Origin: Vicinamibacteria bacterium
GTDB lineage: Bacteria > Acidobacteriota > Vicinamibacteria > Marinacidobacterales > Marinacidobacteraceae
Length of the DNA stretch: 64,000 nucleotides
Assembly (NCBI GenBank): GCA_963422395.1
Contig: OY729431.1
Location: 736,001-800,000, forward strand
Direction: 5' to 3'
The notes under the pieces are model-generated. The model was not told the DNA's origin, did no database searches, and saw only the letters and a program-made list of their open reading frames with translations. The stretch's first letter is position 1, and each line of letters begins with the position of its first letter. Positions 11,794 to 61,096 of the stretch are shown here, one piece after another. The translations under genes were made by a program, and so were the position numbers.

Positions 11794-11934
11794 CCCGTCA
11801 GCGCCGCCCGCTCCGGGAGCGCAGCGCGCGGCGAATGGCTCTTGCGTCGGAAGGGTCTCTTGTCCTACCCTTGTCTGCTACTCGCTGCGTCTTCGGAACC
11901 GGTTTTCCCTAGCCGCTCTCCAGCGTTCAGAACC

Positions 11935-14481
11935 ATGCGCTTTTTCTTGGGCTTCGCTGCTCTAGTGCTCGCTGCAGGCAACCACGCCCAGATCTCTCAC
12001 GCCCGGGCCTTCGAGGCCCGGATCTCCGAAGCCCGGAACCCCGAGGCCCGCTTTTCGCCAGAGAGCCCCGGGCTGTCGGCGGTGCGTGGGTGGTCGTCGG
12101 GGTCGGGGTCGGGGGTGGGGGTTTCAGGAGTTGGGGCTGGGTCGTCGGCGGAGCACAACCGGATGGTTCGGACGTATTGCGTGGTGTGTCACAACGACCG
12201 GATGCGGACGGGGAACATGTCGTTGTCGGGTTTCGATGCGGGGGATGCGTCGTCGAGTCCGGAGTTGTCGGAGAAGGTGGTATCGAAGCTGCGTTTGGGG
12301 ATGATGCCGCCGCCAGGGGCGCGTCGTCCGGCGGAGGAGGTATTGGAGGAGGTTGCGGGGTCTTTGGAGGGTCAGTTGGATCGGAATGCGGAGGAGCATC
12401 CGAATCCGGGGAGGCGTTCGTTTCAGCGTTTGAATCGTGCGGAGTACACGGCGGCGGTTCGGGATTTGCTGGCGTTGCCGGTGGATGCTGCGGAGTATTT
12501 GCCTCAGGACACGATCAGCGCGAACTTCGACAACATCGCGGATGTTCAGTTGTTGTCGGCGACATTGATGGATTCGTATTTGCGTGCGGCGGGCGAGATC
12601 AGTCGGCTGGCGGTGGGCGATCCGAACGCTGTGCCCGCCGAGACGAGCTACTTCGTTTCCCGCTGGTCTTCGCAGCGCCTACAGGTCGAGGGCGCTCCGT
12701 ACGGAACCCGCGGCGGGATCGCGGTGGAGCACACTTTTCCGGCCGACGGACACTATGTGTTCCGGGTTTCGCTGCATCATGAGGTCTGCGGCCCGATCGT
12801 CGGCACCGCTGCCGGAGCGCTGAACTCGGAGCAGGATCCCGAGCAACTCGAAGTCTCGATCGACGGCGAGCGCGTGGCGCTGCTCGCGATCGATCCCTGG
12901 ATGCACACTTCGGACCCGAACGGGGCGACGATGCGGACCGAGCCCATCTTCATCGAAGCCGGGCCGCGCCGGGTGGCCGCTGCCTTCCTGCGCCAGTTCG
13001 ATGGCCCCGTTCAGGACTTGATCTCTCCGCACGACTGGTCGCTGGCGAGCACGAACATCGCGCTCACCTACGGCATCCACAGCCTGCCGCATCTGCGGGA
13101 TGTACTGATTCGCGGTCCGTTCGAGGCGACGGGGGTATCGGAGACGCCGAGTCGGAGTCGGATATTCGGTTGTCGTCCACTGTCGTCGGAGGAGGCGGTT
13201 GGGTGCGCGGAGGAGATCTTGGGACGTTTGGGGCGTTTGGCGTATCGCCGGAGTTTGACGGGGGAGGAGTTGGGAGCGTTGATGGAGCTGTATGCGTCGG
13301 GTTCGGAGAGTGTGGGTTTCGAGGAGGGGATTCGGATGGGGATCGAGGGGATGCTGGCGAGTCCGAACTTCGTATTTCGGATCGAGGAGCCGGTGGATCC
13401 CCGTGAGGCGGCGTTCGGGTATCGGCTGAGCGACACGGACCTGGCGTCTCGTTTGTCGTTTTATCTTTGGGGGACGATACCGGACGAGGAGTTGCTGGAT
13501 TCGGCGGAGTCGGGGCGTTTGTCGGATGCGGAGGAGTATGAGGGTCAGGTGCGTCGGATGCTGTCGGATCCGCGTTCGCTGGCGTTGTCGAAGCGTTTTG
13601 CGAGCCAGTGGTTTCGGTTACAGGATTTGGAGAAGATCAACCCGAACGTGCGTTTGTTTCCGGATTTCCATCAGCAGCTGAAGGAGGCGATGGTGGAGGA
13701 GACGGAGCGTTTTTTCCATCATTTGGTATTGGAGGACCGGAGCGTATTGGAGTTGTTCACGGCGGACTACACATTCGTGAATGAGCGATTGGCGAAGCAC
13801 TACGGGATGACGGGGGTAGCGGGGCCGGAGCACCGTTTGGTGCGGTATGGGGATGCGGGCCGGCGTGGGATATTCGGTCACGGGAGCATTTTGACATTGA
13901 CTTCGCATCCGTATCGGACATCGGCGGTGCTGCGGGGCAAGTGGGTGATGGAGGTATTGCTGGGGAGCCCGCCGCCGCCGCCGCCGCCGAATGTTCCGGA
14001 CCTGGACGCGACGGCGGCGACGGCGGATGGGCGTGAGCTGACGGCGCGGGAGCGTTTGGAGATCCATCGGGACAACCCGGCGTGCCGTTCGTGCCACCGG
14101 ATGATGGACCCGATCGGGTTGGCGCTGGAGCACTACGATGTGACGGGTCGGGAGCGGGTGAAGGACTCGGGGCAGCCGATCGATGCGTCGGGAGAGTTCT
14201 ACGACGGGACGGCGATTCGGGATGTGGGTGATCTGCGGGCGGCGCTGCTGCTGCGGCCGACGCCGCTGCTGCGGACGTTCACGGAGAACCTGATGGCGTA
14301 TGCGTTGGGGAGGCGGGTGGAGTATTACGATCAGCCGCGGGTGCGAGAGATCGTGCGCGAGGCGGCGGAGTCGGACTATCGGATGTCGGCGTTCTTGTTG
14401 GGCGTGGCGCGGAGTCCGGCGTTCCAGAGGAAGGGAGTTTCGGAGCCGTCGCCGGTGGCGACGGAGCTGGGCGAGCCCTGA
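11935..14481 (+). CDS. DUF1592/DUF1587/DUF1595/DUF1588/DUF1585 cytochrome-c domain protein, copy 1
   Basis: Signal peptide; heme motifs CVVCH and CRSCH; RLNRAEY...VRDLL, LASRLSFYLWGTIPD, RTSAVLRGKWV, PPPPPPNVP. Confidence 0.85.
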   Translation: MRFFLGFAALVLAAGNHAQISHARAFEARISEARNPEARFSPESPGLSAVRGWSSGSGSGVGVSGVGAGSSAEHNRMVRTYCVVCHNDRMRTGNMSLSGFDAGDASSSPELSEKVVSKLRLGMMPPPGARRPAEEVLEEVAGSLEGQLDRNAEEHPNPGRRSFQRLNRAEYTAAVRDLLALPVDAAEYLPQDTISANFDNIADVQLLSATLMDSYLRAAGEISRLAVGDPNAVPAETSYFVSRWSSQRLQVEGAPYGTRGGIAVEHTFPADGHYVFRVSLHHEVCGPIVGTAAGALNSEQDPEQLEVSIDGERVALLAIDPWMHTSDPNGATMRTEPIFIEAGPRRVAAAFLRQFDGPVQDLISPHDWSLASTNIALTYGIHSLPHLRDVLIRGPFEATGVSETPSRSRIFGCRPLSSEEAVGCAEEILGRLGRLAYRRSLTGEELGALMELYASGSESVGFEEGIRMGIEGMLASPNFVFRIEEPVDPREAAFGYRLSDTDLASRLSFYLWGTIPDEELLDSAESGRLSDAEEYEGQVRRMLSDPRSLALSKRFASQWFRLQDLEKINPNVRLFPDFHQQLKEAMVEETERFFHHLVLEDRSVLELFTADYTFVNERLAKHYGMTGVAGPEHRLVRYGDAGRRGIFGHGSILTLTSHPYRTSAVLRGKWVMEVLLGSPPPPPPPNVPDLDATAATADGRELTARERLEIHRDNPACRSCHRMMDPIGLALEHYDVTGRERVKDSGQPIDASGEFYDGTAIRDVGDLRAALLLRPTPLLRTFTENLMAYALGRRVEYYDQPRVREIVREAAESDYRMSAFLLGVARSPAFQRKGVSEPSPVATELGEP
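11986..12060 (+). repeat. Five imperfect 15-bp tandem units (AQISH ARAFE ARISE ARNPE ARFSP)
   Basis: gcccagatctctcac gcccgggccttcgag gcccggatctccgaa gcccggaaccccgag gcccgcttttcgcca. Confidence 0.7.
12072..12644 (+). repeat. Constant tract A, copy 1 (partner 18170-18742)
   Basis: Matches its partner at offset 6098; only four substitutions seen (12173, 12282, 12612, 12632). Confidence 0.9.
12099..12121 (+). other. Canonical G-quadruplex-forming motif, copy 1
   Basis: GGGG TC GGGG TC GGGGG T GGGGG: four runs of at least 4 G with 1-2 nt loops. Confidence 0.7.
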
Positions 14482-15882
14482 GCTAGGAGAGAGCGATGCA
14501 CTATCTGACAGGGAAGAGAGTTCCGCGGCGGAGTTTTCTGCGGGGAGCGGGTGCGGCGGTGGCGCTGCCGTTTCTGGATGCGATGGTTCCGGCGAGCGTG
14601 ATTGCGAAGCCGGGGGCGTCGGAGCGAACGCGGCTGGTGGCGATCGAGATCGTGCACGGCGCGGCGGGGAGCAACGAGTATGGGCGGGAGCAGAACCTGT
14701 GGTCGCCGGCTGCGGAGGGTGCGGAGTTCGATCTGTCCGAGGGTGCGTTGAGCCCGCTTGCGCCGTATCGGGACCATGTGACGATCGTGAGCGATTGTGA
14801 TGTGGAGCCGGCAGAGGCGGAGACGGCGCGTGAGATCGGAGGGGACCACTTCCGTTCGAGCGCGGCGTTCCTGACGCAGTCGCATCCGAAGCAGACGGAG
14901 GGTTCGGATGTGCACGCGGGGACTTCGCTGGACCAGCTGTATGCGGCGCGCTTCGGCCAGGAGACGCCGATTCCTTCGATGCAGCTGTGCATCGAGACGG
15001 TGGACCAAGCGGGAGGGTGCGCGTACGGGTATGCGTGCGTGTACACGGACACGATCAGCTGGGCGTCGCCGACGCAGCCGCTGCCGATGACGCGGGACCC
15101 GCGGATCGTGTTCGATCAGCTGTTCGGCGCGGGGGGGACGCCGGAGGGCCGAGTGGCGCGTCAGCAGGCGCGCAAGAGCGTGCTGGACTTCATCGGAGAG
15201 GAAGTCCGGCGGCTCCAGGGGGCGCTGGACCCGGAGGATGTGCGGCGGATGGACCGGTATCTGACGGACATCCGTGAGATGGAGCGTCGGATCGAGCGGA
15301 TCGTGGAGCGGAACACGAGCGGAGAGCTGCGTGACCTGCCGGAGGCGCCGTCGGGAGTCCCGGACTCGTTCGACGAGCATGTGAAGATCATGTTCGACCT
15401 GCAGGCGCTGGCGTTCCAGTCGGACATGACGCGGGTGTTCAGCTTCAAGCTGGGACGGGATGCGTCGAGCCGGGTGTATCCGGAGAGCGGAGAAGCGACG
15501 GCGTTCCACCCGGCATCGCACCACGGGAACGACCCGGAGCGGGTGGAGGTTCTGGGACGGATCAATCGGTACCATGTGGGCTTGGTCCCGTATTTCATGG
15601 AGCGGCTCGCGGGGATCGAGGAGGGAGACCGCTCGCTGCTGGACAAGACGATGATCCTGTATGGGTCCCCGATGGGAGACCCGAACATCCACAACCACAA
15701 GCGGGTTCCGTTCTTCGTCGCAGGCGGTGCGAACGGGGCGCTGGAGCATGGCCTGCATTTGCGGGCGGCGGCGGGTACGCCGCTGGCGAACGTGATGCTG
15801 ACGCTGTTGCACGAGCTGGGTCTGGACGACCTCCCGCGCTTCGGAAACAGCACCGGAGAGTTCTCCCTTTCGGCGTGAGCCG
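13113..15882 (+). repeat. Constant tract B, copy 1 (2770 bp; partner 19211-21980)
   Basis: No differences seen by eye at offset 6098; ORF translations in all frames are identical between the copies. Confidence 0.92.
14496..15878 (+). CDS. DUF1552 domain protein with Tat-like signal, copy 1
   Basis: RRSFLRGAGAAVALPFLDAM; GGCAYGYACVY; HPASHH; follows the DUF1592 gene, the usual pairing. Confidence 0.85.
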   Translation: MHYLTGKRVPRRSFLRGAGAAVALPFLDAMVPASVIAKPGASERTRLVAIEIVHGAAGSNEYGREQNLWSPAAEGAEFDLSEGALSPLAPYRDHVTIVSDCDVEPAEAETAREIGGDHFRSSAAFLTQSHPKQTEGSDVHAGTSLDQLYAARFGQETPIPSMQLCIETVDQAGGCAYGYACVYTDTISWASPTQPLPMTRDPRIVFDQLFGAGGTPEGRVARQQARKSVLDFIGEEVRRLQGALDPEDVRRMDRYLTDIREMERRIERIVERNTSGELRDLPEAPSGVPDSFDEHVKIMFDLQALAFQSDMTRVFSFKLGRDASSRVYPESGEATAFHPASHHGNDPERVEVLGRINRYHVGLVPYFMERLAGIEEGDRSLLDKTMILYGSPMGDPNIHNHKRVPFFVAGGANGALEHGLHLRAAAGTPLANVMLTLLHELGLDDLPRFGNSTGEFSLSA

Positions 15883-15910
15883 GGGGCGCGCCGGGGAGGA
15901 GATCTGGAAA

Positions 15911-17977
15911 ATGGAGATGGAGAGGAACGGAGAGAAGCGGAAGGCGGGGCTGTTGCTGTGCCTCGCGGCGGGGCTCGCGGCGGCGTGCCTATCGCTGGCG
16001 GGGGCCTCGTTCGCGGCGCGGGTGCCGCCGGTTCTGGAGGCGGCGAAGCGTGGAGATGTCGAGGCGCTGCGGTCGGAGCTGCGGTCGGGGGGAGATGTGA
16101 ACACGGCGCAGGGGGACGGTTTCACCGCGCTGCACTGGGCGGCGAAGACGGGGAGCCGCGAGGTGGCGGAGGTGTTGATCGCGGCGGGAGCGGACCTGCG
16201 GGCGACGACGCGGCTGGGAAGCCACATGCCGTTGCATGTGGCGGCGGCAGCGGGGCAGCCGGGGGTTGCGGAAGCGCTGCTCGAGGCCGGCGCTCCGGTC
16301 GCTGCAACCACCGGAACCGGCGCTCGGCCCATCCACTTCGCCGCCGCCTCCGGGAACCCCTCCCTGATCGAAGTGCTCGCGGGGAAGGGCGCTGACCTGA
16401 ATGTGGTCGAACCGCAGTGGGGGCAGACCCCGCTCATGTTCGCCGCCGCCACCGGCCGCGCCGCGGCGGTCGAGGCGCTGCTGGTTCGAGGGGCGGATCC
16501 CTCCGCGACGGCCTCGGTCCTCGATGTGGCGGCGCGGGCAGAAGCCGACCTGCTGGCCCGCCGGGCCCGTCAGGCGCGGGTAGATCGCGAGCGGGGCGGG
16601 GCCGGCGTGATCTACGACCCTCGGGAACGGGACAAGCAGCGCAAGGAAGCGCAGCGGCGGGCGAAGGCGGCCGCTGCCGCCAAGGCGGAGCGCGAGAAAG
16701 GGCGCACCGAAGAAACGCCCGCAGCCTCCGGTTCCGGAAAGAGCGGCTCTGCGGATCTCGCCGACCTGAAGCTGGAGGGAAAGAAGCCAGCGGAGGACGG
16801 GGAGGGCGCAGCCGATGCGGAAGCGTCCGAAGCCGAAAAGGACGAACACGCGGAGGCTCACGGCCACCCCGAAGACGAACTCGTCCGGGAAGAAGAGAAG
16901 ACCCGGAAAGAAGACGAGCAGAAGGCCGCCGCCCGGAAGGGTGGTGACTCCGGGAAGGAAAACCGGCAGCCGCTGCGGTATGCCGAACTCGTGGGCACCC
17001 ACGGCGGTCTGACGGCGCTGCTGCTCGCTGCCCGCGACGGCCATCTCGAAGCGGCGGCGGCTCTGCTGGACGGAGGCGCCGCTGTCGATCAGCGAGCTGA
17101 AGGACACCGGACGACCCCGCTTCTGATGGCCGCCATCAACGGCCACTACGACCTCGGCATGGAGCTGCTCGCCCGCGGTGCCGACCCGAACCTCAGGAAC
17201 ATCTCCGGTGCCGCTCCGCTCTATGCAGCCATCAACGCCCGCTGGATTTCCCAACCCTTCCACCCGCAGCCGGCAGACCACCTGCAGCAGCAGAACTCGC
17301 ATGTCGAGTTCATGGAAGCGCTGATCGAGGCCGGCGCCGATATCGATGCTCGGCTCGAGCGGAAGCAGTGGTACAGCACCTACAACACCGACCAGCTCGG
17401 AGTGAACCGGGCCGGGGCGACCGCCTTCTGGCGCGCTGCGTACGCGCTGGACATTCCGGCGATGGAACTGCTCGTTGCGCACGGTGCGGACCCTTCGATT
17501 CCCACCATGAAGGTCCCCGAACGGACGCTGCGCCGGCTGACGGACCTGGTCTCCGAAGATCCGGAGGAGGATCCTTCGGGGCTGCCCGAGGTGCCCTACG
17601 GAGGGCCTGGCGTCTATCCGATCCACGCTGCCGCCGGGGTGGGCTACGGGCTGGGTCTCGCGGCGAACTCGCATCGCCACGCTCCCGACGCCTGGCTGCC
17701 GGCGGTGCAGTACCTGGTGGAGGAACACGGCGCCGATCCGGACGCCCGAGACCACAATGGATACAGCGTCATCCACCACGCCGCTTCGCGCGGGGACAAC
17801 GAGATGATCGAGTATCTGATCGGGAAGGGCGCCGATCCGTTGGCGGTCGCCCGGACCGGCCAGACGACGATCGATCTCGCGAACGGTCCGGTGCAGCGGA
17901 TCAGCCCCTTCCCGGAAACCATCGCGCTACTCGAAGGTTACGGCGCCAAGAACAACAACCGCTGCGTCGGGTGCTGA
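15911..17977 (+). CDS. Secreted ankyrin-repeat protein with long charged linker and C-terminal CxxC, copy 1
   Basis: GGAGGAG before ATG 15911; TALHWAA, PLHVAA, TPLMFAA, TPLLMAA repeats; ends NNNRCVGC. Confidence 0.85.
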   Translation: MEMERNGEKRKAGLLLCLAAGLAAACLSLAGASFAARVPPVLEAAKRGDVEALRSELRSGGDVNTAQGDGFTALHWAAKTGSREVAEVLIAAGADLRATTRLGSHMPLHVAAAAGQPGVAEALLEAGAPVAATTGTGARPIHFAAASGNPSLIEVLAGKGADLNVVEPQWGQTPLMFAAATGRAAAVEALLVRGADPSATASVLDVAARAEADLLARRARQARVDRERGGAGVIYDPRERDKQRKEAQRRAKAAAAAKAEREKGRTEETPAASGSGKSGSADLADLKLEGKKPAEDGEGAADAEASEAEKDEHAEAHGHPEDELVREEEKTRKEDEQKAAARKGGDSGKENRQPLRYAELVGTHGGLTALLLAARDGHLEAAAALLDGGAAVDQRAEGHRTTPLLMAAINGHYDLGMELLARGADPNLRNISGAAPLYAAINARWISQPFHPQPADHLQQQNSHVEFMEALIEAGADIDARLERKQWYSTYNTDQLGVNRAGATAFWRAAYALDIPAMELLVAHGADPSIPTMKVPERTLRRLTDLVSEDPEEDPSGLPEVPYGGPGVYPIHAAAGVGYGLGLAANSHRHAPDAWLPAVQYLVEEHGADPDARDHNGYSVIHHAASRGDNEMIEYLIGKGADPLAVARTGQTTIDLANGPVQRISPFPETIALLEGYGAKNNNRCVGC

Positions 17978-17984
17978 CAAGAGG

Positions 17985-20579
17985 ATGCGGCGTTTGACTT
18001 TCGATGGCGAGGCGAGGGTCGGCCGCGTTCCCTTTGCGATTTCCGTTTTCCTGATTTCCCTGCTGCCGATTGCCGCCGGGGCCTCTTCGGCTGCGGCAGC
18101 ACCGTCTCTCCCACCGTCCTCGCCGCAGGCGTCAGCGGTCGAAGGATCGCCGCCGCTTTCCGCTTCTGCGCTGTCGGCGGTGCGTGGGTGGTCGTCGGGG
18201 TCGGGGTCGGGGGTGGGGGTTTCAGGAGTTGGGGCTGGGTCGTCGGCGGAGCACAACCGGATGGTTCGGATGTATTGCGTGGTGTGTCACAACGACCGGA
18301 TGCGGACGGGGAACATGTCGTTGTCGGGTTTCGATGCGGGGGATGCGTCGTCGAGTCCGGAGTTGTCGGAGAAGGTGGTGTCGAAGCTGCGTTTGGGGAT
18401 GATGCCGCCGCCAGGGGCGCGTCGTCCGGCGGAGGAGGTATTGGAGGAGGTTGCGGGGTCTTTGGAGGGTCAGTTGGATCGGAATGCGGAGGAGCATCCG
18501 AATCCGGGGAGGCGTTCGTTTCAGCGTTTGAATCGTGCGGAGTACACGGCGGCGGTTCGGGATTTGCTGGCGTTGCCGGTGGATGCTGCGGAGTATTTGC
18601 CTCAGGACACGATCAGCGCGAACTTCGACAACATCGCGGATGTTCAGTTGTTGTCGGCGACATTGATGGATTCGTATTTGCGTGCGGCGGGCGAGATCAG
18701 TCGGCTGGCCGTGGGCGATCCGAACGCTGCGCCCGCCGAGACCGGCTACCATGTGTCGCGTTGGGCGTCCCAGCTGGACCAGGTCGAGGGCGCTCCGTAC
18801 GGAACCCGCGGCGGGATCGCGGTGGAGCATGTCTTTCCCGCTGACGGTGCATACCGATTCCGAGTGGCGTTCCACCATGAGACGACCGGCGCGATCGTGG
18901 GTTCGGGATCGAGTTCGCTCCATACCCTGGACGCTCCGGAACGAGTGGAGATCTCGATCGACGGCGAGCGGGTGGCGCTGCTCACGGTCGACCGCTGGAT
19001 GCATGTCTCCGATCCCGACGGGGTCAACTTGCGGACCGAGCCCATCTTCGTCCGCGGGGGGCCGCGCCGGGTTGCTGCTGCCTTCCTGAAACATTACGAG
19101 GGTCCGGTCCTCGACTTGATCTCTCCGCACGACTGGTCGCTGGCGAGCACCGCGACCTCGAGGACCTACGGCATCCACAATGTCCCCCACCTGCGGGATT
19201 TCTTCATCACCGGTCCGTTCGAGGCGACGGGGGTATCGGAGACGCCGAGTCGGAGTCGGATATTCGGTTGTCGTCCACTGTCGTCGGAGGAGGCGGTTGG
19301 GTGCGCGGAGGAGATCTTGGGACGTTTGGGGCGTTTGGCGTATCGCCGGAGTTTGACGGGGGAGGAGTTGGGAGCGTTGATGGAGCTGTATGCGTCGGGT
19401 TCGGAGAGTGTGGGTTTCGAGGAGGGGATTCGGATGGGGATCGAGGGGATGCTGGCGAGTCCGAACTTCGTATTTCGGATCGAGGAGCCGGTGGATCCCC
19501 GTGAGGCGGCGTTCGGGTATCGGCTGAGCGACACGGACCTGGCGTCTCGTTTGTCGTTTTATCTTTGGGGGACGATACCGGACGAGGAGTTGCTGGATTC
19601 GGCGGAGTCGGGGCGTTTGTCGGATGCGGAGGAGTATGAGGGTCAGGTGCGTCGGATGCTGTCGGATCCGCGTTCGCTGGCGTTGTCGAAGCGTTTTGCG
19701 AGCCAGTGGTTTCGGTTACAGGATTTGGAGAAGATCAACCCGAACGTGCGTTTGTTTCCGGATTTCCATCAGCAGCTGAAGGAGGCGATGGTGGAGGAGA
19801 CGGAGCGTTTTTTCCATCATTTGGTATTGGAGGACCGGAGCGTATTGGAGTTGTTCACGGCGGACTACACATTCGTGAATGAGCGATTGGCGAAGCACTA
19901 CGGGATGACGGGGGTAGCGGGGCCGGAGCACCGTTTGGTGCGGTATGGGGATGCGGGCCGGCGTGGGATATTCGGTCACGGGAGCATTTTGACATTGACT
20001 TCGCATCCGTATCGGACATCGGCGGTGCTGCGGGGCAAGTGGGTGATGGAGGTATTGCTGGGGAGCCCGCCGCCGCCGCCGCCGCCGAATGTTCCGGACC
20101 TGGACGCGACGGCGGCGACGGCGGATGGGCGTGAGCTGACGGCGCGGGAGCGTTTGGAGATCCATCGGGACAACCCGGCGTGCCGTTCGTGCCACCGGAT
20201 GATGGACCCGATCGGGTTGGCGCTGGAGCACTACGATGTGACGGGTCGGGAGCGGGTGAAGGACTCGGGGCAGCCGATCGATGCGTCGGGAGAGTTCTAC
20301 GACGGGACGGCGATTCGGGATGTGGGTGATCTGCGGGCGGCGCTGCTGCTGCGGCCGACGCCGCTGCTGCGGACGTTCACGGAGAACCTGATGGCGTATG
20401 CGTTGGGGAGGCGGGTGGAGTATTACGATCAGCCGCGGGTGCGAGAGATCGTGCGCGAGGCGGCGGAGTCGGACTATCGGATGTCGGCGTTCTTGTTGGG
20501 CGTGGCGCGGAGTCCGGCGTTCCAGAGGAAGGGAGTTTCGGAGCCGTCGCCGGTGGCGACGGAGCTGGGCGAGCCCTGA
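17985..20579 (+). CDS. DUF1592-family cytochrome-c domain protein, copy 2
   Basis: Same motifs as copy 1, with a different N-terminus and central domain. Confidence 0.85.
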   Translation: MRRLTFDGEARVGRVPFAISVFLISLLPIAAGASSAAAAPSLPPSSPQASAVEGSPPLSASALSAVRGWSSGSGSGVGVSGVGAGSSAEHNRMVRMYCVVCHNDRMRTGNMSLSGFDAGDASSSPELSEKVVSKLRLGMMPPPGARRPAEEVLEEVAGSLEGQLDRNAEEHPNPGRRSFQRLNRAEYTAAVRDLLALPVDAAEYLPQDTISANFDNIADVQLLSATLMDSYLRAAGEISRLAVGDPNAAPAETGYHVSRWASQLDQVEGAPYGTRGGIAVEHVFPADGAYRFRVAFHHETTGAIVGSGSSSLHTLDAPERVEISIDGERVALLTVDRWMHVSDPDGVNLRTEPIFVRGGPRRVAAAFLKHYEGPVLDLISPHDWSLASTATSRTYGIHNVPHLRDFFITGPFEATGVSETPSRSRIFGCRPLSSEEAVGCAEEILGRLGRLAYRRSLTGEELGALMELYASGSESVGFEEGIRMGIEGMLASPNFVFRIEEPVDPREAAFGYRLSDTDLASRLSFYLWGTIPDEELLDSAESGRLSDAEEYEGQVRRMLSDPRSLALSKRFASQWFRLQDLEKINPNVRLFPDFHQQLKEAMVEETERFFHHLVLEDRSVLELFTADYTFVNERLAKHYGMTGVAGPEHRLVRYGDAGRRGIFGHGSILTLTSHPYRTSAVLRGKWVMEVLLGSPPPPPPPNVPDLDATAATADGRELTARERLEIHRDNPACRSCHRMMDPIGLALEHYDVTGRERVKDSGQPIDASGEFYDGTAIRDVGDLRAALLLRPTPLLRTFTENLMAYALGRRVEYYDQPRVREIVREAAESDYRMSAFLLGVARSPAFQRKGVSEPSPVATELGEP
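18170..18742 (+). repeat. Constant tract A, copy 2
   Basis: Near-identical to 12072-12644; includes the G4 motif at 18197-18219. Confidence 0.9.
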
Positions 20580-20593
20580 GCTAGGAGAGAGCG

Positions 20594-21976
20594 ATGCACT
20601 ATCTGACAGGGAAGAGAGTTCCGCGGCGGAGTTTTCTGCGGGGAGCGGGTGCGGCGGTGGCGCTGCCGTTTCTGGATGCGATGGTTCCGGCGAGCGTGAT
20701 TGCGAAGCCGGGGGCGTCGGAGCGAACGCGGCTGGTGGCGATCGAGATCGTGCACGGCGCGGCGGGGAGCAACGAGTATGGGCGGGAGCAGAACCTGTGG
20801 TCGCCGGCTGCGGAGGGTGCGGAGTTCGATCTGTCCGAGGGTGCGTTGAGCCCGCTTGCGCCGTATCGGGACCATGTGACGATCGTGAGCGATTGTGATG
20901 TGGAGCCGGCAGAGGCGGAGACGGCGCGTGAGATCGGAGGGGACCACTTCCGTTCGAGCGCGGCGTTCCTGACGCAGTCGCATCCGAAGCAGACGGAGGG
21001 TTCGGATGTGCACGCGGGGACTTCGCTGGACCAGCTGTATGCGGCGCGCTTCGGCCAGGAGACGCCGATTCCTTCGATGCAGCTGTGCATCGAGACGGTG
21101 GACCAAGCGGGAGGGTGCGCGTACGGGTATGCGTGCGTGTACACGGACACGATCAGCTGGGCGTCGCCGACGCAGCCGCTGCCGATGACGCGGGACCCGC
21201 GGATCGTGTTCGATCAGCTGTTCGGCGCGGGGGGGACGCCGGAGGGCCGAGTGGCGCGTCAGCAGGCGCGCAAGAGCGTGCTGGACTTCATCGGAGAGGA
21301 AGTCCGGCGGCTCCAGGGGGCGCTGGACCCGGAGGATGTGCGGCGGATGGACCGGTATCTGACGGACATCCGTGAGATGGAGCGTCGGATCGAGCGGATC
21401 GTGGAGCGGAACACGAGCGGAGAGCTGCGTGACCTGCCGGAGGCGCCGTCGGGAGTCCCGGACTCGTTCGACGAGCATGTGAAGATCATGTTCGACCTGC
21501 AGGCGCTGGCGTTCCAGTCGGACATGACGCGGGTGTTCAGCTTCAAGCTGGGACGGGATGCGTCGAGCCGGGTGTATCCGGAGAGCGGAGAAGCGACGGC
21601 GTTCCACCCGGCATCGCACCACGGGAACGACCCGGAGCGGGTGGAGGTTCTGGGACGGATCAATCGGTACCATGTGGGCTTGGTCCCGTATTTCATGGAG
21701 CGGCTCGCGGGGATCGAGGAGGGAGACCGCTCGCTGCTGGACAAGACGATGATCCTGTATGGGTCCCCGATGGGAGACCCGAACATCCACAACCACAAGC
21801 GGGTTCCGTTCTTCGTCGCAGGCGGTGCGAACGGGGCGCTGGAGCATGGCCTGCATTTGCGGGCGGCGGCGGGTACGCCGCTGGCGAACGTGATGCTGAC
21901 GCTGTTGCACGAGCTGGGTCTGGACGACCTCCCGCGCTTCGGAAACAGCACCGGAGAGTTCTCCCTTTCGGCGTGA
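20594..21976 (+). CDS. DUF1552 domain protein, copy 2 (identical to copy 1)
   Basis: 460-aa translation identical to 14496-15878. Confidence 0.85.
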   Translation: MHYLTGKRVPRRSFLRGAGAAVALPFLDAMVPASVIAKPGASERTRLVAIEIVHGAAGSNEYGREQNLWSPAAEGAEFDLSEGALSPLAPYRDHVTIVSDCDVEPAEAETAREIGGDHFRSSAAFLTQSHPKQTEGSDVHAGTSLDQLYAARFGQETPIPSMQLCIETVDQAGGCAYGYACVYTDTISWASPTQPLPMTRDPRIVFDQLFGAGGTPEGRVARQQARKSVLDFIGEEVRRLQGALDPEDVRRMDRYLTDIREMERRIERIVERNTSGELRDLPEAPSGVPDSFDEHVKIMFDLQALAFQSDMTRVFSFKLGRDASSRVYPESGEATAFHPASHHGNDPERVEVLGRINRYHVGLVPYFMERLAGIEEGDRSLLDKTMILYGSPMGDPNIHNHKRVPFFVAGGANGALEHGLHLRAAAGTPLANVMLTLLHELGLDDLPRFGNSTGEFSLSA

Positions 21977-21980
21977 GCCG
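21968..21980 (+). repeat. 13-bp direct repeat left of the TBDR gene
   Basis: TCGGCGTGAGCCG, repeated at 24975-24987. Confidence 0.75.
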
Positions 21981-22042
21981 AAGACCTGGAAAGGGCGTTT
22001 CGCGCTAGTTCACTGTTTTTCTGGAAGATGAGGATTCCTTTC

Positions 22043-24916
22043 ATGTACAAAGTGTTTATGCACAAAATTCCCATGTTGGTCTTGCCAACGCTACTCATGG
22101 CGGTTTCCGCGCCTGCCCAGCAGACCGGGACGGTCACGGGGACGGCGTCGGATGAGCAGGGTGCGGTATTGCCTGGGGTGGCGGTGACGGTGGACAGCGA
22201 TGCGTTGATAGCGCCGCGCAGCACGACGACCGGGTCTGGGGGTTCTTACAGCCACCCGGCGCTTCCGCCGGGTGAGTATCGGGTGACCTTCGCGCTGTCG
22301 GGTTTCCAGACGGTGATTCAGGAGGGGGTCCGGGTGAGCGTGGCGCGGACGCTGGAGGTGAACGCGACGATGGGACTTTCCGGGGTGGAGGAGACGGTGA
22401 CGGTGACGGGGGACGCCCCGGTGGTGGATGTGCGCAGCGCGACGATCCAGACGAACATCGAGCGGGAGTTGCTGGAGGCGGTACCCACGGGACGGAATCC
22501 ATGGGTGATGGCGGGGCTGGTTCCGGGGATGGTGACGACCCGGATCGATGTCGGTGGGAGCAACGGGATGCAGCAGTACGGCATGGAGATTTTCGGATCG
22601 TCGGCGACGATGCAGAGTTTTCAGGTGGACGGTCTGAAGGTGAACTGGCCTGGGGGGACCGGGGGTTGGACGATGCAGTACTACGGATTTTCGATGTATG
22701 AGGAGTTCAACTTCCAGACCTCGACGCACACTGCGGAGTCGGACACCGGCGGGGTTTTGATGAACATGGTGGTGAAGTCTGGGGGGAACGAGTTCAGCGG
22801 CGACGCGATCGGGCTGTACAACGCGACGGACCTGCAGGGGGAGCCGGCGGAGGCGGGGGGTGCGCCGATCACGCGATCTTTGGACCTGAACGGGACCCTC
22901 GGGGGCCCGATCGTGCGGGACCGGGCGTGGTTTTTCACTGCCTATCGGCACTGGGTGCACGATCAGGAGGTGACGGTTCCGGCGGACTATGTGGGAGCGA
23001 CGCCGGTGGACGACAATCGGATTCGCAATCTTTCGGGGAAGTTGACTTGGCAGGCGAGCGACAACGATCGCCTTTTCGTGACGCTGCAGCGGAACTGGAA
23101 GCAGCGTTTCCACCGGCGCGACAGTCCGTATACGGCGGTTCCGGACGATCTCGCCCGGTTCCAGGACCAGTGGGCCGACAACGCCATCCTGTCCTACAAC
23201 CGGGTGCTGGGCGATGCGGCGCTGCTGGATCTCCGCTTCGGGAGGATGTGGGGAACCACTCCGTACATTCTGTATTCCGAGTATTGCGGGGTTCCGGTGG
23301 ACGAGTATCCGGACGCCCGCCCCTGTACCGAGAACGACATATCGGTCATCGACCCGGTGCGTGCGGAGCAGTTCAACGCGGATCGGCGTGGGGAGTATTG
23401 GAACCCGAACTACCGCAACCAGTTCAACGGCTCGCTGACCTACTACCTGGACACGGCATCTGGTTCGCACAACTTCAAGGTCGGTGCGCAGGCGTCGCGA
23501 GAGGGGATGGACACCCGGACCTTCAAGAGCGGTGATGCGTATGGGGAGCTGAGCGACGGGGTTCCGAGCCGGATCAACATTTCGAGGACTCCGAACTTCA
23601 AGATGGAGAGGTTGAACACCTGGGGGGCGTTCATCCAGGATGCCTGGACGATCGGGGACCGGCTGACGCTGAACCTCGGGGTGCGGCTCGACGGGATCTA
23701 TGGTTATGTTCCGGAGCAGAGCAGTCCGGCGGGGACTTGGACTGCGCTTTCGGACCAGCTCGCCGGGGACATTTTTTCGGTGAACAGCGAGATCACGGGG
23801 TTGCCGGACTGGCCGCTGAACATCGGCCCGCGGCTGAGCTTCGCCTACGACCTTTTCGGCGACGGCCGCGCGGCGCTGAAGGGTGGCTGGGGCCGTTACT
23901 ACACGCAGATGGGGAGCGCGCTGCCAGCGAGCGCGAACCCGAACGGGGGGTCTTCCGCCTGGGTGGGTTGGAACGATCTCGACGGGGACAAGCTGGTGGA
24001 CATCGGGCCCTCGGGGACCCTGGCGGACAGCCCCGAGGTGGACCTGAGCAAGTTCGAGGGATTCACGGGGGGGGCGACCACGGTGTACGACCGTGACGCG
24101 AACCGGCCGTACAGCGACGACATATCGCTGGGAGTGGACATGACGATGGGGTCGGATGTGTCGATCAGCGCGACGTACCATCGGCGCCAACACCGGGATT
24201 CGCTGGGGGTTCTGAACCGGGCTCGCCCGCCGTCCGGCTACGAGCAGAGCAGTTTTTCCTGTTCCAACTGTCCGGAATCTTCCTATACGGTCTATGAGCT
24301 GAAGGATGAGTATCGCGGTCTCCAGGACAATGTGATCACGAGTATCGACAAGCTGCAGAGCAACTACAACGGGGTTGCGGTGCAGATCCAGAAGCGTTTT
24401 TCGAACCGCTGGCAGCTGCTGGGGGGGGCGACCTTTTCGAGCCACCGTGGGGTACCGCACGCGTTGCCGTGGGACAACACCGACTGGAACAACCCGAACC
24501 GGGAGATCAACCGGCTGGACGGAGCGGTGCTGACGGATGTGCCGTGGGTATTCAATGTAGCGGGGAGCTACCTGGCTCCGTACGACATCCAGGTCGGCTG
24601 GAACTATCGTGCGAGGGCGGGGAACCCGCTGGTATCGACGGCGCGGGCGACGGGGCTGGTTCAGGGTTCGGAGTCGATCTACGCCTACGAGCGTGGCGAC
24701 GAACGGACCGAGACGATCACGGATTTGCTGGACATCAACCTCCGCAAGGGTTTCGATCTCGAGGGGGTGCGGGTCGAGTTCGGCGCGGACATGGCGAACA
24801 TTTTCAACTCGCAGAAGGCGGACGCCTTGATCACGGGCTTCGGCTCGCGCTATCTGCAGCCGTCCCGCGTGCTGCCCCCGCGAATCTTCCGCTTCACCGC
24901 GAAACTGCTCTTCTGA
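22043..24916 (+). CDS. TonB-dependent receptor with N-terminal carboxypeptidase-regulatory-like domain (Oar-like)
   Basis: GAGGA Shine-Dalgarno before ATG 22043 (alternative start 22028); GTVTGTASDEQGAVLPGV, ETVTVTG, KSGGNEFSG, FIQDAWTIGDRLTLNLGVRLD, PRLSFAYDLFG; terminal Phe. Confidence 0.85.
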   Translation: MYKVFMHKIPMLVLPTLLMAVSAPAQQTGTVTGTASDEQGAVLPGVAVTVDSDALIAPRSTTTGSGGSYSHPALPPGEYRVTFALSGFQTVIQEGVRVSVARTLEVNATMGLSGVEETVTVTGDAPVVDVRSATIQTNIERELLEAVPTGRNPWVMAGLVPGMVTTRIDVGGSNGMQQYGMEIFGSSATMQSFQVDGLKVNWPGGTGGWTMQYYGFSMYEEFNFQTSTHTAESDTGGVLMNMVVKSGGNEFSGDAIGLYNATDLQGEPAEAGGAPITRSLDLNGTLGGPIVRDRAWFFTAYRHWVHDQEVTVPADYVGATPVDDNRIRNLSGKLTWQASDNDRLFVTLQRNWKQRFHRRDSPYTAVPDDLARFQDQWADNAILSYNRVLGDAALLDLRFGRMWGTTPYILYSEYCGVPVDEYPDARPCTENDISVIDPVRAEQFNADRRGEYWNPNYRNQFNGSLTYYLDTASGSHNFKVGAQASREGMDTRTFKSGDAYGELSDGVPSRINISRTPNFKMERLNTWGAFIQDAWTIGDRLTLNLGVRLDGIYGYVPEQSSPAGTWTALSDQLAGDIFSVNSEITGLPDWPLNIGPRLSFAYDLFGDGRAALKGGWGRYYTQMGSALPASANPNGGSSAWVGWNDLDGDKLVDIGPSGTLADSPEVDLSKFEGFTGGATTVYDRDANRPYSDDISLGVDMTMGSDVSISATYHRRQHRDSLGVLNRARPPSGYEQSSFSCSNCPESSYTVYELKDEYRGLQDNVITSIDKLQSNYNGVAVQIQKRFSNRWQLLGGATFSSHRGVPHALPWDNTDWNNPNREINRLDGAVLTDVPWVFNVAGSYLAPYDIQVGWNYRARAGNPLVSTARATGLVQGSESIYAYERGDERTETITDLLDINLRKGFDLEGVRVEFGADMANIFNSQKADALITGFGSRYLQPSRVLPPRIFRFTAKLLF

Positions 24917-24974
24917 TGTTCTCGGGAGCGCGTCTTTGAGTTTCGACTGCTGCGCGGGAGCGCTGTTCTCGCTG

Positions 24975-24987
24975 TCGGCGTGAGCCG
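24975..24987 (+). repeat. 13-bp direct repeat right of the TBDR gene, preceded by a remnant of the DUF1552 3' end
   Basis: gttctcgctgTCGGCGTGAGCCG versus gttctccctTTCGGCGTGAGCCG; both read FSLSA-stop. Confidence 0.7.
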
Positions 24988-25015
24988 GGGGCGCGCCGGG
25001 GAGGAGACCTGGAAA

Positions 25016-26854
25016 ATGGAGATGGAGAGGAACGGAGAGAGGCGTAGGGCGGGACTGTTGCTGGTTTTCGCGGCAGGGCTTGCGGCGGCGTGCCTATCGT
25101 TGGCGGGGGCCTCGTTCGCGGCGCGGGTGCCGCCGGTTCTGGAGGCGGCGAAGCGTGGAGATGTCGAGGCGCTGCGGTCGGAGCTGCGGTCGGGGGGAGA
25201 TGTGAACACGGCGCAGGGGGACGGTTTCACCGCGCTGCACTGGGCGGCGAAGACGGGGAGCCGCGAGGTGGCGGAGGTGTTGATCGCGGCGGGAGCGGAC
25301 CTTCGGGCGACGACGCGGCTGGGAAGCCACATGCCGTTGCATGTGGCGGCGGCAGCGGGGCAGCCGGGGGTTGCGGAAGCGCTGCTCGAGGCCGGCGCTC
25401 CGGTCGCTGCAGCCACCGGAACCGGCGCTCGGCCCATCCACTTCGCCGCCGCCTCCGGGAACCCCTCCCTGATTGAAGTGCTGCTCGCTCACGGCGCTTC
25501 GCCCGACGCTCGGGAGAGCGCGTGGGGGCGCACCCCGCTCATGTTCGCCGCGGTCAACGATCGGGCTGAAGCCGTTCGGGTGATCATGGAGGCTGGGGCG
25601 GATCCCTCGATCACCGCGGAGATCCTCGATGTAGTGGAGCGCGCCCGGCTGGACATGGAAGAACGGCGCGCTCGGCAGGCCCGCCTCGCCGAGGAGCGGG
25701 GCGGGACCGGCATCATCGAGGCCGAACGTCCGCTGCCCGCCAACGGGACTGACCGCCGCGCACCGAAAGGGACGGGTGCTGCGGGGACGGCCGGTCTGCC
25801 GCCGGATCCCCTCGAGCCGGACCCCGACTCGGAGCGCGATCCGAACGAGCCGAAGCCGATCACTTACGAAGAGCGCGTCGGCACCCACGGCGGGTTGACC
25901 GCCCTGCTGCTCGCTGCCCGGGAAGGCCGTATCGAGAGTGCGCTCGCCCTGCTCGACGCCGGCGCCGCTATCGACCAGCGCGCCGCCGGCAGCGGAACGA
26001 CTCCGCTTCTGATGGCGACCATCAACGGTCACTTCGATCTCTCGATGGAGTTGCTCGCACGGGGCGCCGACCCGACGCTCGCGGATGCGCAGGGAGCCAC
26101 GCCGCTCTACGGCGCGGTCAACACCCGATGGATCCCCAAGGCGCGCCATCCGCAACCGGCCGACTACCTCCAGCAGAAGACTTCGCATCTCGAGCTCCTG
26201 CAGGCGCTGCTCGACGCCGGCGCCGAGGTGAACGCCCAGATCGAGAGCTCGCTCTGGTACACAGTCTTCAATGTGGACCAGTTGGGTGTGGACCGCAGCG
26301 GTGCGACAGCCTTCTGGCGGGCGGCCTATTCGCTCGACATCCCGGCGATGAAGCTGCTCGTGGCCAATGGTGCCGACCCCCACATCCCGACGACCCGGGT
26401 GCCGGAGCGGCGGCGTCTTCCCCGGCTCGTCGAAGACGACGCGGCTGATCCGTCGGGCCTGCCGCCCACTGCCTTCGGAGGGCCGGCGGTCTATCCGATC
26501 CACGCCGCTGCTGGGGTGGGCTACGGACTCGGGCTCGCCGCGAATTCACACCGCCACGCTCCCGACGCCTGGCTGCCGGCAGTGCGGTACCTGGTGGAGG
26601 AGTGCGGGGCCGATGTAACCCTGCGCGACCACAACGGGTACAGCACGATCCATCACGCGGCTTCGCGCGGGGATACCGAGATGGTGCAGTACCTGATCGA
26701 CGAGGGGGCGGATCCGCTCGCAGTGGCGCGCACCGGCCAAACGACCATAGATCTCGCCAACGGTCCGGTGCAGCGCATCAATCCGTTCCCGGAAACGATC
26801 GCCCTGCTCGAAAGGTACGGCGTGAAGAACAACCACGCCTGCGTCGGCTGCTGA
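25016..26854 (+). CDS. Secreted ankyrin-repeat protein with C-terminal CxxC, copy 2
   Basis: 5' end near-identical to copy 1 at offset 9105 up to 25482; ends NNHACVGC. Confidence 0.85.
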   Translation: MEMERNGERRRAGLLLVFAAGLAAACLSLAGASFAARVPPVLEAAKRGDVEALRSELRSGGDVNTAQGDGFTALHWAAKTGSREVAEVLIAAGADLRATTRLGSHMPLHVAAAAGQPGVAEALLEAGAPVAAATGTGARPIHFAAASGNPSLIEVLLAHGASPDARESAWGRTPLMFAAVNDRAEAVRVIMEAGADPSITAEILDVVERARLDMEERRARQARLAEERGGTGIIEAERPLPANGTDRRAPKGTGAAGTAGLPPDPLEPDPDSERDPNEPKPITYEERVGTHGGLTALLLAAREGRIESALALLDAGAAIDQRAAGSGTTPLLMATINGHFDLSMELLARGADPTLADAQGATPLYGAVNTRWIPKARHPQPADYLQQKTSHLELLQALLDAGAEVNAQIESSLWYTVFNVDQLGVDRSGATAFWRAAYSLDIPAMKLLVANGADPHIPTTRVPERRRLPRLVEDDAADPSGLPPTAFGGPAVYPIHAAAGVGYGLGLAANSHRHAPDAWLPAVRYLVEECGADVTLRDHNGYSTIHHAASRGDTEMVQYLIDEGADPLAVARTGQTTIDLANGPVQRINPFPETIALLERYGVKNNHACVGC

Positions 26855-41971: not shown

Positions 41972-42112
41972 CGCGGAGAAGTCTAGGAGCCTGCGGCAGC
42001 GGCCGGGAATCGCGACTCGGAATCCGGTCCCGACGGCAGCGAAACCGCCTCCAGCCGAAAACAGCTGTTGCGCCCGAGGCTACGGCTCGGGCGCGGCGCA
42101 GCGGGGGAAAGT

Positions 42113-42138
42113 GTGAAAGGGGGTTTACCCCCGTTCAC
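42113..42138. promoter_or_regulatory. Near-perfect inverted repeat in a divergent intergenic region (possible operator)
   Basis: GTGAAAGGGGGT-TT-ACCCCCGTTCAC, 11/12 arm match. Confidence 0.35.
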
Positions 42139-42284
42139 CGAATAGTGACACCGAAGCCGAACTCGCTGCCTCCGGCAGCAGTTCGGATTCGCGGCGCGCA
42201 GCGCCGGGCGGTTCGGGAGCGGGGCATCCTCCCTCTTCCCCCAAGAATGCCCGACGCCATCCTGACGCCCCGCTCCCGGACCGC

Positions 42285-42320
42285 TCAGTCTCAGTCTCGG
42301 TCTCAGTCTCAGTCTCGGCC
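42285..42320 (+). repeat. Hexamer microsatellite (TCRGTC) x6
   Basis: tcagtc tcagtc tcggtc tcagtc tcagtc tcggcc. Confidence 0.8.
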
Positions 42321-60859: not shown

Positions 60860-60873
60860 TCGACCCCGGCGGA

Positions 60874-61096
60874 TTAGCAGCCTGTGGATGAAGTGGCGCG
60901 AGCCCCAAGAGCGGTCCAGTTCTCCCGGTGGGGGCGGCGCCCGGCTGGCAAGGCGCGTGAGGGAGGAATACCGGGAGTATTTCGACCGAAACGCAACGAT
61001 GAGCGCCGTGAAACGGGGCGGTTCAGCCGGGGCCCCCACCGGGAGAACCGGGCATCGCCGGCCTTTGGCCGTGTGACTTTGTTCACAGGCTGCTAA
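60874..61096. mobile_element. 223-bp non-coding MITE/REP-like element with nested inverted repeats
   Basis: Terminal IR TTAGCAGCCTGTG/CACAGGCTGCTAA; internal 17-bp perfect IR at 60919-60935/61032-61048; 7-bp IR at 60941-60947/61024-61030. Confidence 0.7.

Follow-up and report, generated by a model that had tools for sequence, protein, structure and literature searches.

GRINS-type G skew in a tandem gene pair of a marine Vicinamibacteria bacterium follows the extent of gene conversion

Introduction

How can the coding sequence of a single gene change its nucleotide composition abruptly, and change it back, within one reading frame? The question is raised by a locus of a marine Vicinamibacteria bacterium (Acidobacteriota; GenBank assembly GCA_963422395.1, contig OY729431.1) that lies in a stretch of 64,000 nucleotides, hereafter the window, corresponding to positions 736001–800000 of a single-contig genome of 2.908 Mb and 68.4% GC. 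Window positions 11842–26854 hold two tandem modules, A and B, on the + strand, each comprising, in this order, a PSD/PSCyt cytochrome-like gene (PSD), a DUF1552 gene, and an ankyrin-repeat gene. A preliminary description of the sequence had noted that tracts shared by the copies carry a sharply bounded, G/T-rich and C-poor signature, and had attributed it either to a strand-asymmetric C>T/A>G process, such as deamination, acting on repeatedly copied tracts or to a compositionally foreign donor. We find that the skew starts and stops where the identity of the copies does, that the PSD tracts qualify as genetic repeats with intense nucleotide skews (GRINS), and that their synonymous sites carry G, and not T, in place of C.

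GRINS were described in 2021 in a survey that covered polyketide synthase (PKS) clusters, Streptomyces, and five phyla, Acidobacteriota not among them (PMC8256042). They are defined as duplicated stretches longer than 500 bp with more than 80% identity, in which the mean absolute GC and TA skews, taken in 150-nt windows with a step of 30, both exceed 0.15; the skews peak at third codon positions, take both signs, and coincide with gene conversion, and transposases are the commonest carriers (PMC8256042). Their mechanism was left open, with tautomer-driven C>T/A>G errors and a promotion of conversion by the skew offered as suggestions (PMC8256042). In the literature as we searched it, the term GRINS or its full name appeared only with PKS and nonribosomal peptide synthetase (NRPS) subjects. 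The present locus extends the phenomenon to Acidobacteriota and to ordinary proteins of unknown function that are predicted to be exported, and it indicates that a single orthologous locus can maintain GRINS through several genera.

Composition switches at the limits of identity between the copies

Modules A and B were compared at an offset of 6098 nucleotides, and the 5′ tracts of their ankyrin genes at an offset of 9105; all genes and tracts of the locus are on the + strand. The PSD gene of module A (11842–14481; its start codon is uncertain and position 11842 is provisional) contains a constant-left tract at 12072–12611 that differs at only two of 540 positions, 12173 and 12282, from its counterpart in module B (18170–18709). 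Next comes a variable window (12612–13112 in A and 18710–19210 in B), in which 131 of 501 letters are mismatched (74% identity, no indels), with 0.70 synonymous (dS) and 0.22 nonsynonymous (dN) substitutions per site and a dN/dS of 0.31. The constant-right tract (13113–15882), which spans the 3′ part of the PSD gene, the spacer, and the entire DUF1552 gene, has no mismatch to positions 19211–21980 over its 2770 nucleotides. A further shared tract, with 16 mismatches, forms the 5′ part of the ankyrin genes (15860–16368 in A and 24965–25473 in B), and past it the two genes drop to 19–86% identity per 90-column window.

The composition follows these limits closely. In 60-column stretches of both copies, the identical tracts gave GC skews of +0.07 to +0.66, as against −0.19 to +0.17 for the variable window, and the positive skew turns on and off at the identity boundaries. 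The signal is located at third codon positions: the constant tracts have C3 of 0.11–0.25, G3 of 0.59–0.71, and T3 of 0.05–0.21 (constant-left tract A, C3 0.11 and G3 0.65), whereas the variable windows and the diverged ankyrin parts have C3 of 0.42–0.44 and G3 of 0.38–0.40, as in native neighbor genes (variable window A, C3 0.42 and G3 0.40; ankyrin gene A past 16368, C3 0.43 and G3 0.38). Within the ankyrin 5′ tract, the skew of G over C at third positions (GC3 skew) is +0.24 to +0.69 in five 90-column windows, and it is about zero beyond. The four 60-nt counts given in the preliminary description were exact (13261–13320, G30 C6 T16 A8; 13201–13260, G28 C10; 12361–12420, G25 C11; and, in the variable window, 12901–12960, G17 C21), and its sharp switches recur in both copies by GC skew and by third-position composition alike; the tract that it had ended at 16280 ends in fact at 16368.

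On the scale of the genome, GC skew in 300-nt windows with a step of 100 has a mean of 0.001 and an SD of 0.083. Values above +0.3 occur in only 75 windows, which form 22 merged regions; seven of these sit at the PSD locus, including the two longest (1700 nt each).

Contigs from public runs of three studies contain the stretch. In run X1, k-mer depth was 28–33 over the unique flanks and the variable window, 50.5 for a constant-left contig, 52.4 for a contig that comprised exactly 13113–15882, and 47.5 for the ankyrin 5′ tract; the constant-right tract was at about 1.8 times the depth of its flanks. Run X6 gave about 8 for unique sequence and 14.4 for the constant tracts. This two-to-one ratio is what is expected of a two-copy repeat in one organism, and a chimeric assembly is therefore not supported. 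In X6 the constant-right tract assembled as one contig with 24 differences from the window, a hint that both copies share variants in that strain, to be read with the proviso that contigs may mask minor variants.

Four-fold sites have exchanged C for G

At four-fold degenerate sites, native single-copy genes have A 0.071, C 0.453, G 0.398, and T 0.079, as opposed to A 0.069, C 0.075, G 0.747, and T 0.109 in the constant tracts. At two-fold sites, C/(C+T) is 0.776 in native genes versus 0.629 in the tracts, and G/(A+G) is 0.707 versus 0.968. The tracts use a G-ending codon wherever one is available (GCG 93% and GCC 1%, CCG 92%, ACG 83%, GAG 97%), with a mild shift to T in TTG, CGT, and TAT. The codons that the preliminary description had listed as typical of the tracts are for the most part raised over native usage (TTG, 38% of Leu codons versus 5%; CGT, 28% versus 6%; TTT, 20% versus 9%; GAT, 44% versus 32%; CAT, 41% versus 27%), AAT being the exception (22% versus 21%). 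The dominant signal, the replacement of NNC by NNG in four-fold boxes, was absent from that list.

We modeled a process in which only the sense-strand C>T and A>G rates are raised. With factors fitted on two-fold sites (2.0 and 12.6), such a transitions-only model predicts a four-fold C of 0.40–0.42, and even with a factor of 50 it reaches a C of 0.06–0.09 only together with a T of 0.44–0.47, four-fold G being capped at 0.47. Since the model misses the observed four-fold G and T, transitions due to deamination or tautomers are not the main cause at this locus. Here at least, the codon spectrum rules out transition mutagenesis in that role and points to a bias of G against C that is coupled to conversion.

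Copies evolve in concert, and skew follows their identity

A tree built on the variable window (31 rows from 15 genomes, with the more distant PSD paralogue C of the same genome as outgroup) has two clades with SH-aLRT (approximate likelihood ratio test) supports of 95 and 94, each of which holds one window from every one of the 15 genomes. Because each clade holds all genomes, both window types, alpha in module A and beta in module B, are older than the radiation of the family. Their chromosomal order is reversed in genomes G000, G008, and G003 relative to the other 12, which an earlier exchange of variable windows or of their flanks would explain. The protein tree of the constant-right tract has a different topology, in which copies pair by genome in G000, G008, G003, G004, and G012 and group by copy only in genera g2 and g6. 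These trees show that the copies evolve in concert by recurrent gene conversion, which one window escapes. The view that the skewed tracts are the repeatedly copied ones, expressed in the preliminary description, is thereby borne out, as is the strand asymmetry of their skew.

The extent of skew moves with the extent of concerted evolution across five genera, the two expanding and contracting jointly. In G000 (genus g1) and in G008 and G003 (g4), all except the variable window is near-identical and skewed. In G004 and G012 (g5), the DUF1552 copies combine 98–99% identity with skew, a state that the 3′ half of PSD shares in part. In G013 and G015 (g6), the PSD genes are mostly 59–93% identical per window and native (G3 0.37–0.43, C3 0.45–0.55), whereas the DUF1552 copies reach overall identities of 99.6% and 100% and are skewed (G3 0.58–0.62, C3 0.24–0.31). 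In six g2 genomes, the copies are 88–92% identical and unskewed, with approximately the same G3 and C3. Copy identity was correlated with GC3 skew across 14 genomes (335 windows, each of 150 columns; Spearman rho 0.75), the mean skew rising from −0.10 below 80% identity to +0.02 at 80–90%, +0.10 at 90–97%, +0.35 at 97–99.9%, and +0.42 at 99.9% or more.

Differences between the copies of skewed genomes were polarised with the aid of other genomes, which was possible for 49 of 101 and not for the remaining 52. The polarised changes are mostly losses of G (G>C 11, G>T 11, G>A 7), and few are gains of it (T>G 2, C>G 1). The C>T changes that the preliminary description would predict do occur (eight, plus five at first positions, or 13 of the 49). 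At four-fold sites that either do not vary or vary as singletons across nine skewed genomes, the ancestral state was G in 102 cases and C in one; the same class of sites gave G 111 and C 54 in one set of g2 genomes and G 109 and C 63 in another. Recent changes are thus mostly away from G, yet the conserved sites are G, which fits a loss of C variants after they arise. This gives modest support to the notion that sense-C variants arise and do not persist, in agreement with a bias during spread or loss between copies. The singleton counts are uninformative on the rate of C>G because there are hardly any conserved four-fold C sites.

The PSD tracts qualify as GRINS

The PSD constant tracts qualify as GRINS, and the DUF1552 and ankyrin parts do so by GC skew and not by TA skew. 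The two principal tracts are 540 and 2770 bp long and 99.6% and 100% identical between copies. Mean absolute GC skew is 0.37 in the constant-left tract, 0.32 in the PSD part of the constant-right tract, 0.21 in DUF1552, and 0.33 in the ankyrin 5′ tract, all above the 0.15 threshold, and 0.085 in the genome; mean absolute TA skew in the PSD tracts is 0.19–0.21 and 0.16, likewise above 0.15. GC and TA skews are correlated in the PSD tracts (r +0.38 to +0.56), as opposed to r 0.03 in DUF1552 and −0.10 in the genome. With its third-position skew and its coincidence with gene conversion, constant-left tract A has every defining property of GRINS.

The likeness thus comprises duplicated coding stretches of more than 500 bp and more than 80% identity with an intense and abrupt GC skew that resides at third positions of conversion tracts, together with skewed transposases of both signs in the same genome (see below). 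The locus differs from described GRINS in that it is not a PKS or NRPS locus, belongs to a phylum outside the survey, has only two copies, and has a skew that is positive throughout 4.3 kb with weak TA skew over DUF1552. The PKS examples are recent and cluster-specific (PMC8256042), whereas the present state is found at one orthologous locus across genera. Relative to the main text of the same paper, a further difference is the substitution of G for C at four-fold sites, which the transition model of its Fig. 6A cannot yield (PMC8256042).

Among other systems, the concerted evolution of rRNA operons is similar in that paralogues within a genome are closer than orthologues and tracts have sharp edges; the titles and opening lines of the abstracts of those reports make no mention of a strand-specific codon recoding of tracts (PMC8022953, PMC5485169). 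A second comparison is with ordinary GC-biased gene conversion. That process biases fixation solely in sequence that undergoes conversion, and it raises G and C alike on both strands. The present effect sets G against C on one strand, and G3+C3 is not raised (0.76–0.88 versus 0.82–0.85), which rules out ordinary GC-biased conversion. In the antigenic-variation cassettes of the Borrelia vls type, a G-rich coding strand accompanies segmental gene conversion. The present locus differs in that there are no silent cassettes and in that conversion bypasses the variable window, both of whose types are conserved across genera.

Possible origins of the skew

Our preferred interpretation, held with moderate confidence, is that of a GRINS-type repeat whose copies stay identical through recurrent intrachromosomal conversion, with a bias toward G acting at fixation between copies. 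The tandem modules are older than the radiation of this marine Vicinamibacteria family, and conversion homogenizes the copies except in the 501-bp window, with its two old functional types, and in each ankyrin gene's 3′ part. Sense-strand synonymous sites of the converting tracts have been driven to G and mildly to T. The data show the conversion, its coupling to the skew, and the codon spectrum; from these we infer that the bias acts at fixation, most likely at the point where a variant gains ground or disappears between copies, and not as transition mutation pressure; it may be a strand-specific bias of conversion or mismatch repair that prefers sense-strand G over C.

Several observations weigh against this interpretation. 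The 14 genomes are related and represent about five lineages rather than independent points. The tandem copies of G028, which belongs to another family, are 99.97% identical over 3261 nt and unskewed; dispersed DUF1552 copies of G030 are 99% identical and unskewed; and g2 genomes have 90-column windows that are 100% identical yet unskewed. Because such near-identical unskewed copies exist, conversion alone would be insufficient, or would need time. The polarisation leans to conserved ancestral states, which are mostly G. Mean absolute TA skew lies below 0.15 in DUF1552 (0.07), in the ankyrin 5′ tract (0.12), and in the constant-right tract as a whole (0.11), at a genome background of 0.147 and 68% GC against which the TA threshold discriminates poorly. 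In the same genome, insertion sequence (IS) genes of the IS481-like type and a giant ankyrin gene have the mirror skew (GCC 63–67%, CTC 70–83%).

It is tempting to generalize that GRINS skew is made by conversion itself, through a strand-specific disparity of G over C, a transversion pair, whenever copies differ; we offer this only tentatively and would sooner expect it to fail than to hold. The disparity may come from conversion that is polarised from a fixed initiation side, with G:G and C:C mismatches treated unequally. Were this true, tracts that have long been converting would slowly be recoded to G-ending codons as non-converting windows stayed native, and the orthologous locus in five genera would present successive stages of the GRINS life cycle as a natural time series. 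The question of the origin of GRINS becomes testable as a conversion disparity. Tracts of this kind distort codon-usage tests for horizontal transfer and confound analyses of GC skew.

Skew may instead have come before conversion. The second hypothesis of the GRINS paper has a G(T)-rich strand recombining readily, and being homogenized for that reason, with the skew arising separately (PMC8256042). Low complexity, G-runs, R-loops, or a recombinase preference could make the strand recombine in this way, and on their sense strand the constant tracts are indeed rich in G-runs at least three letters long (114 G-runs versus 17 C-runs, as compared with nine of each in the variable window). RecA prefers GT-rich DNA. 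The high mean skew of windows with at least 97% identity agrees with this order as well. We nevertheless think it rather unlikely, since conversion occurs without skew in G028 and in the identical g2 windows, and since the ankyrin 5′ tract is intensely skewed yet differs at 16 of 509 positions, next to a tract with 0 of 2770. The origin of the skew is, moreover, left unexplained by this order. Counts of 6- to 8-letter words revealed no dominant Chi-like or other repeated motif. Canonical G-quadruplex patterns numbered one to two in three of the four tracts scanned, with none in the fourth.

Selection on mRNA or translation for G-ending, C-poor codons, acting through the supply of tRNAs, a weakening of RNA structure, or escape from Rho-dependent termination, with the identity of the copies a separate matter, strikes us as improbable. 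It would accord with the operation of the G-ending rule per codon family and with a depletion of C that is far stronger at four-fold than at two-fold sites. It is challenged by the variable window, which is native in the same reading frame and, by inference, on the same messenger, by the native composition of paralogue C and of the g2 orthologues, and by the mirrored IS481-like and giant ankyrin genes. Genome-wide, repeats make up the genes of highest GC3 skew, and we identified neither ribosomal-protein nor other core genes in that group, in which annotation covered only the repeat elements.

Strand-specific transition mutagenesis, in which a strand that is displaced or single in the course of copying undergoes C>T and A>G changes through deamination or mispaired tautomers, corresponds to Fig. 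6A of the GRINS paper (PMC8256042) and to the process first proposed for this locus. The mild rise of T, the large replacement of GAA by GAG, and the C>T share of the recent differences speak for it. We regard it as very improbable here, given that four-fold C has been replaced by G and not by T: at the observed C of about 0.07 the model would give a T of 0.47 and a G of at most 0.47, and the two-fold Y sites permit merely a two-fold rise of C>T.

To horizontal transfer from a foreign donor, the other source proposed at the outset, or to a chimeric assembly, we give almost no credence: the GC content of the tracts (0.58–0.65) is below that of the genome (0.68) and IS5-like elements share the codon style, but DUF1552 relatives exist in 17 of 18 genomes of the same family, the tandem architecture exists in 13 other genomes, with orthology of the pair across five genera, the constant tracts group by genome and genus, and k-mer depth fits two copies in one organism (X1, 50–52 versus 28–33; X6, 14.4 versus about 8).

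Some candidates were rejected outright. A composition inherent to the protein family is ruled out by the native paralogue C. Replication strand is ruled out as the cause by a second tandem pair on the opposite strand of the same replichore (see below); with a sense-strand G skew on both strands of one replichore, the sign is not set by replication direction in this genome. A diversity-generating retroelement at the variable window does not agree with the mismatches, which are symmetric among the bases where adenine-specific ones would be expected (G/C 44, C/T 28, and A/G 19 of 131), or with the conservation of both types across genera, and RVT_1 had no match in the genome, which is 93.8% complete. 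Repeat-induced point mutation, in the form of C>T hypermutation of repeats, is refuted by the identity of the copies and by the four-fold T and G given above.

Other repeats of the same genome

We called 1681 genes crudely by open reading frame length and GC3, with no gene finder, and excluded the overlapping assembly ends. A GC3 skew above +0.2 was found in 12 of 20 genes with at least 80% multi-copy 25-mers versus 1% of 1592 single-copy genes, and genes with a multi-copy fraction of at least 0.5 differed from those below 0.02 (Mann-Whitney p 5.6e-5). Over all 1681 genes, the rank correlation between GC3 skew and multi-copy fraction was not significant (Spearman 0.045, p 0.066) because signs are mixed and repeats are few. 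The proposal that skew tracks multicopy status holds, then, for the highly repeated genes and for copy identity across the 14 genomes, and it fails as a general rule in view of that null correlation, the mirror skews, and the unskewed duplicates.

IS elements, whose strands were assigned by Pfam, fall on both sides. The IS5-like transposase genes (genome positions 1888261–1889473 and 1786188–1787708) have the codon pattern of the PSD tracts (GCG 77%, CCG 77%, GGG 59%, CGG 59%, TTG 25%), and the IS481-like elements (genome 1116501–1117728, 1739814–1740935, 1970700–1971950, and 2568682–2569906) have an intense third-position skew of the opposite sign, in agreement with the place of transposases as the most frequent GRINS carriers (PMC8256042). 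The giant ankyrin-repeat gene (genome 516011–523363, minus strand, 2450 residues) has internal repeats with 25-mers that occur up to 43 times, C3 of 0.71 and G3 of 0.21, and a mean absolute TA skew of 0.49, and its skews are those of GRINS. A second GRINS-like tandem pair lies at genome 618382–622635 on the minus strand, with a weak LVIVD-repeat match; over the first of its near-identical stretches, GC3 skew on the sense strand is +0.28 to +0.64. The third PSD-DUF1552 pair of the genome, paralogue C (2288027–2291977, minus strand), is native (G3 0.38–0.41, C3 0.48–0.49), and its PSD protein is roughly 55–60% identical to those of A and B.

Genes of the locus and additional observations

The product of the PSD-A gene matches the Pfam families DUF1587, DUF1595, DUF1592, DUF1588 (PSCyt3), and DUF1585 with E values of 1.9e-47 to 1.9e-18 and has two CXXCH motifs, CVVCH at residue 113 and CRSCH at residue 748; the PSD-B gene (17985–20579) has the same five domains. 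The function of PSCyt-family genes is given as unknown in PMC5615132. The DUF1552 genes of module A (14496–15878) and module B (20594–21976) are identical and belong to the HXXSHH family (PF07586, E 4.3e-82), with a twin-arginine-type N terminus, RRSFLRGAG, and an HPASHH motif. The ankyrin-repeat genes of module A (15875–17977) and module B (24980–26854) complete the modules, that of A matching Pfam Ank families. In genomes of the same family, the DUF1552 relatives are 84–89% identical and mostly present as two nearby copies, with an added paralogue at 57–60% identity, and the order of the module is unchanged in the loci fetched from 13 other genomes.

In G030, a genome of 9.2 Mb, there are about 17 DUF1552 matches near 65% identity to the query, of which four were fetched. 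These units are 1.7–2.2 kb long and about 99% identical to one another, and no PSD gene match was found in their fetched flanks; the unit looks like a mobile or amplified one.

Between DUF1552-B and ankyrin gene B stands an outer-membrane barrel gene (22028–24916; Pfam CarboxypepD_reg and OMP_b-brl_4), which has a second copy at genome 289101–292127. The more skewed part of this pair is its 5′ part (GC3 skew +0.36 to +0.70), which is 91–96% identical, and the remaining part, 96–100% identical, is weakly skewed. The barrel gene had no tblastn match in 16 loci fetched from 14 other genomes, and the insertion was found in G000 only.

The contig ends (1–35903 and 2872301–2908270) carry the same sequence for about 36 kb, apart from some diverged patches. 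This repeat is without skew and is likely due to an untrimmed circular assembly, perhaps with strain variation. Elsewhere in the window, positions 42057–42286 and 60872–61082 (genome 778057–778286 and 796872–797082) are repeats of about 200 bp that resemble miniature inverted-repeat transposable elements, with 20–30 copies in the genome and weak skew.

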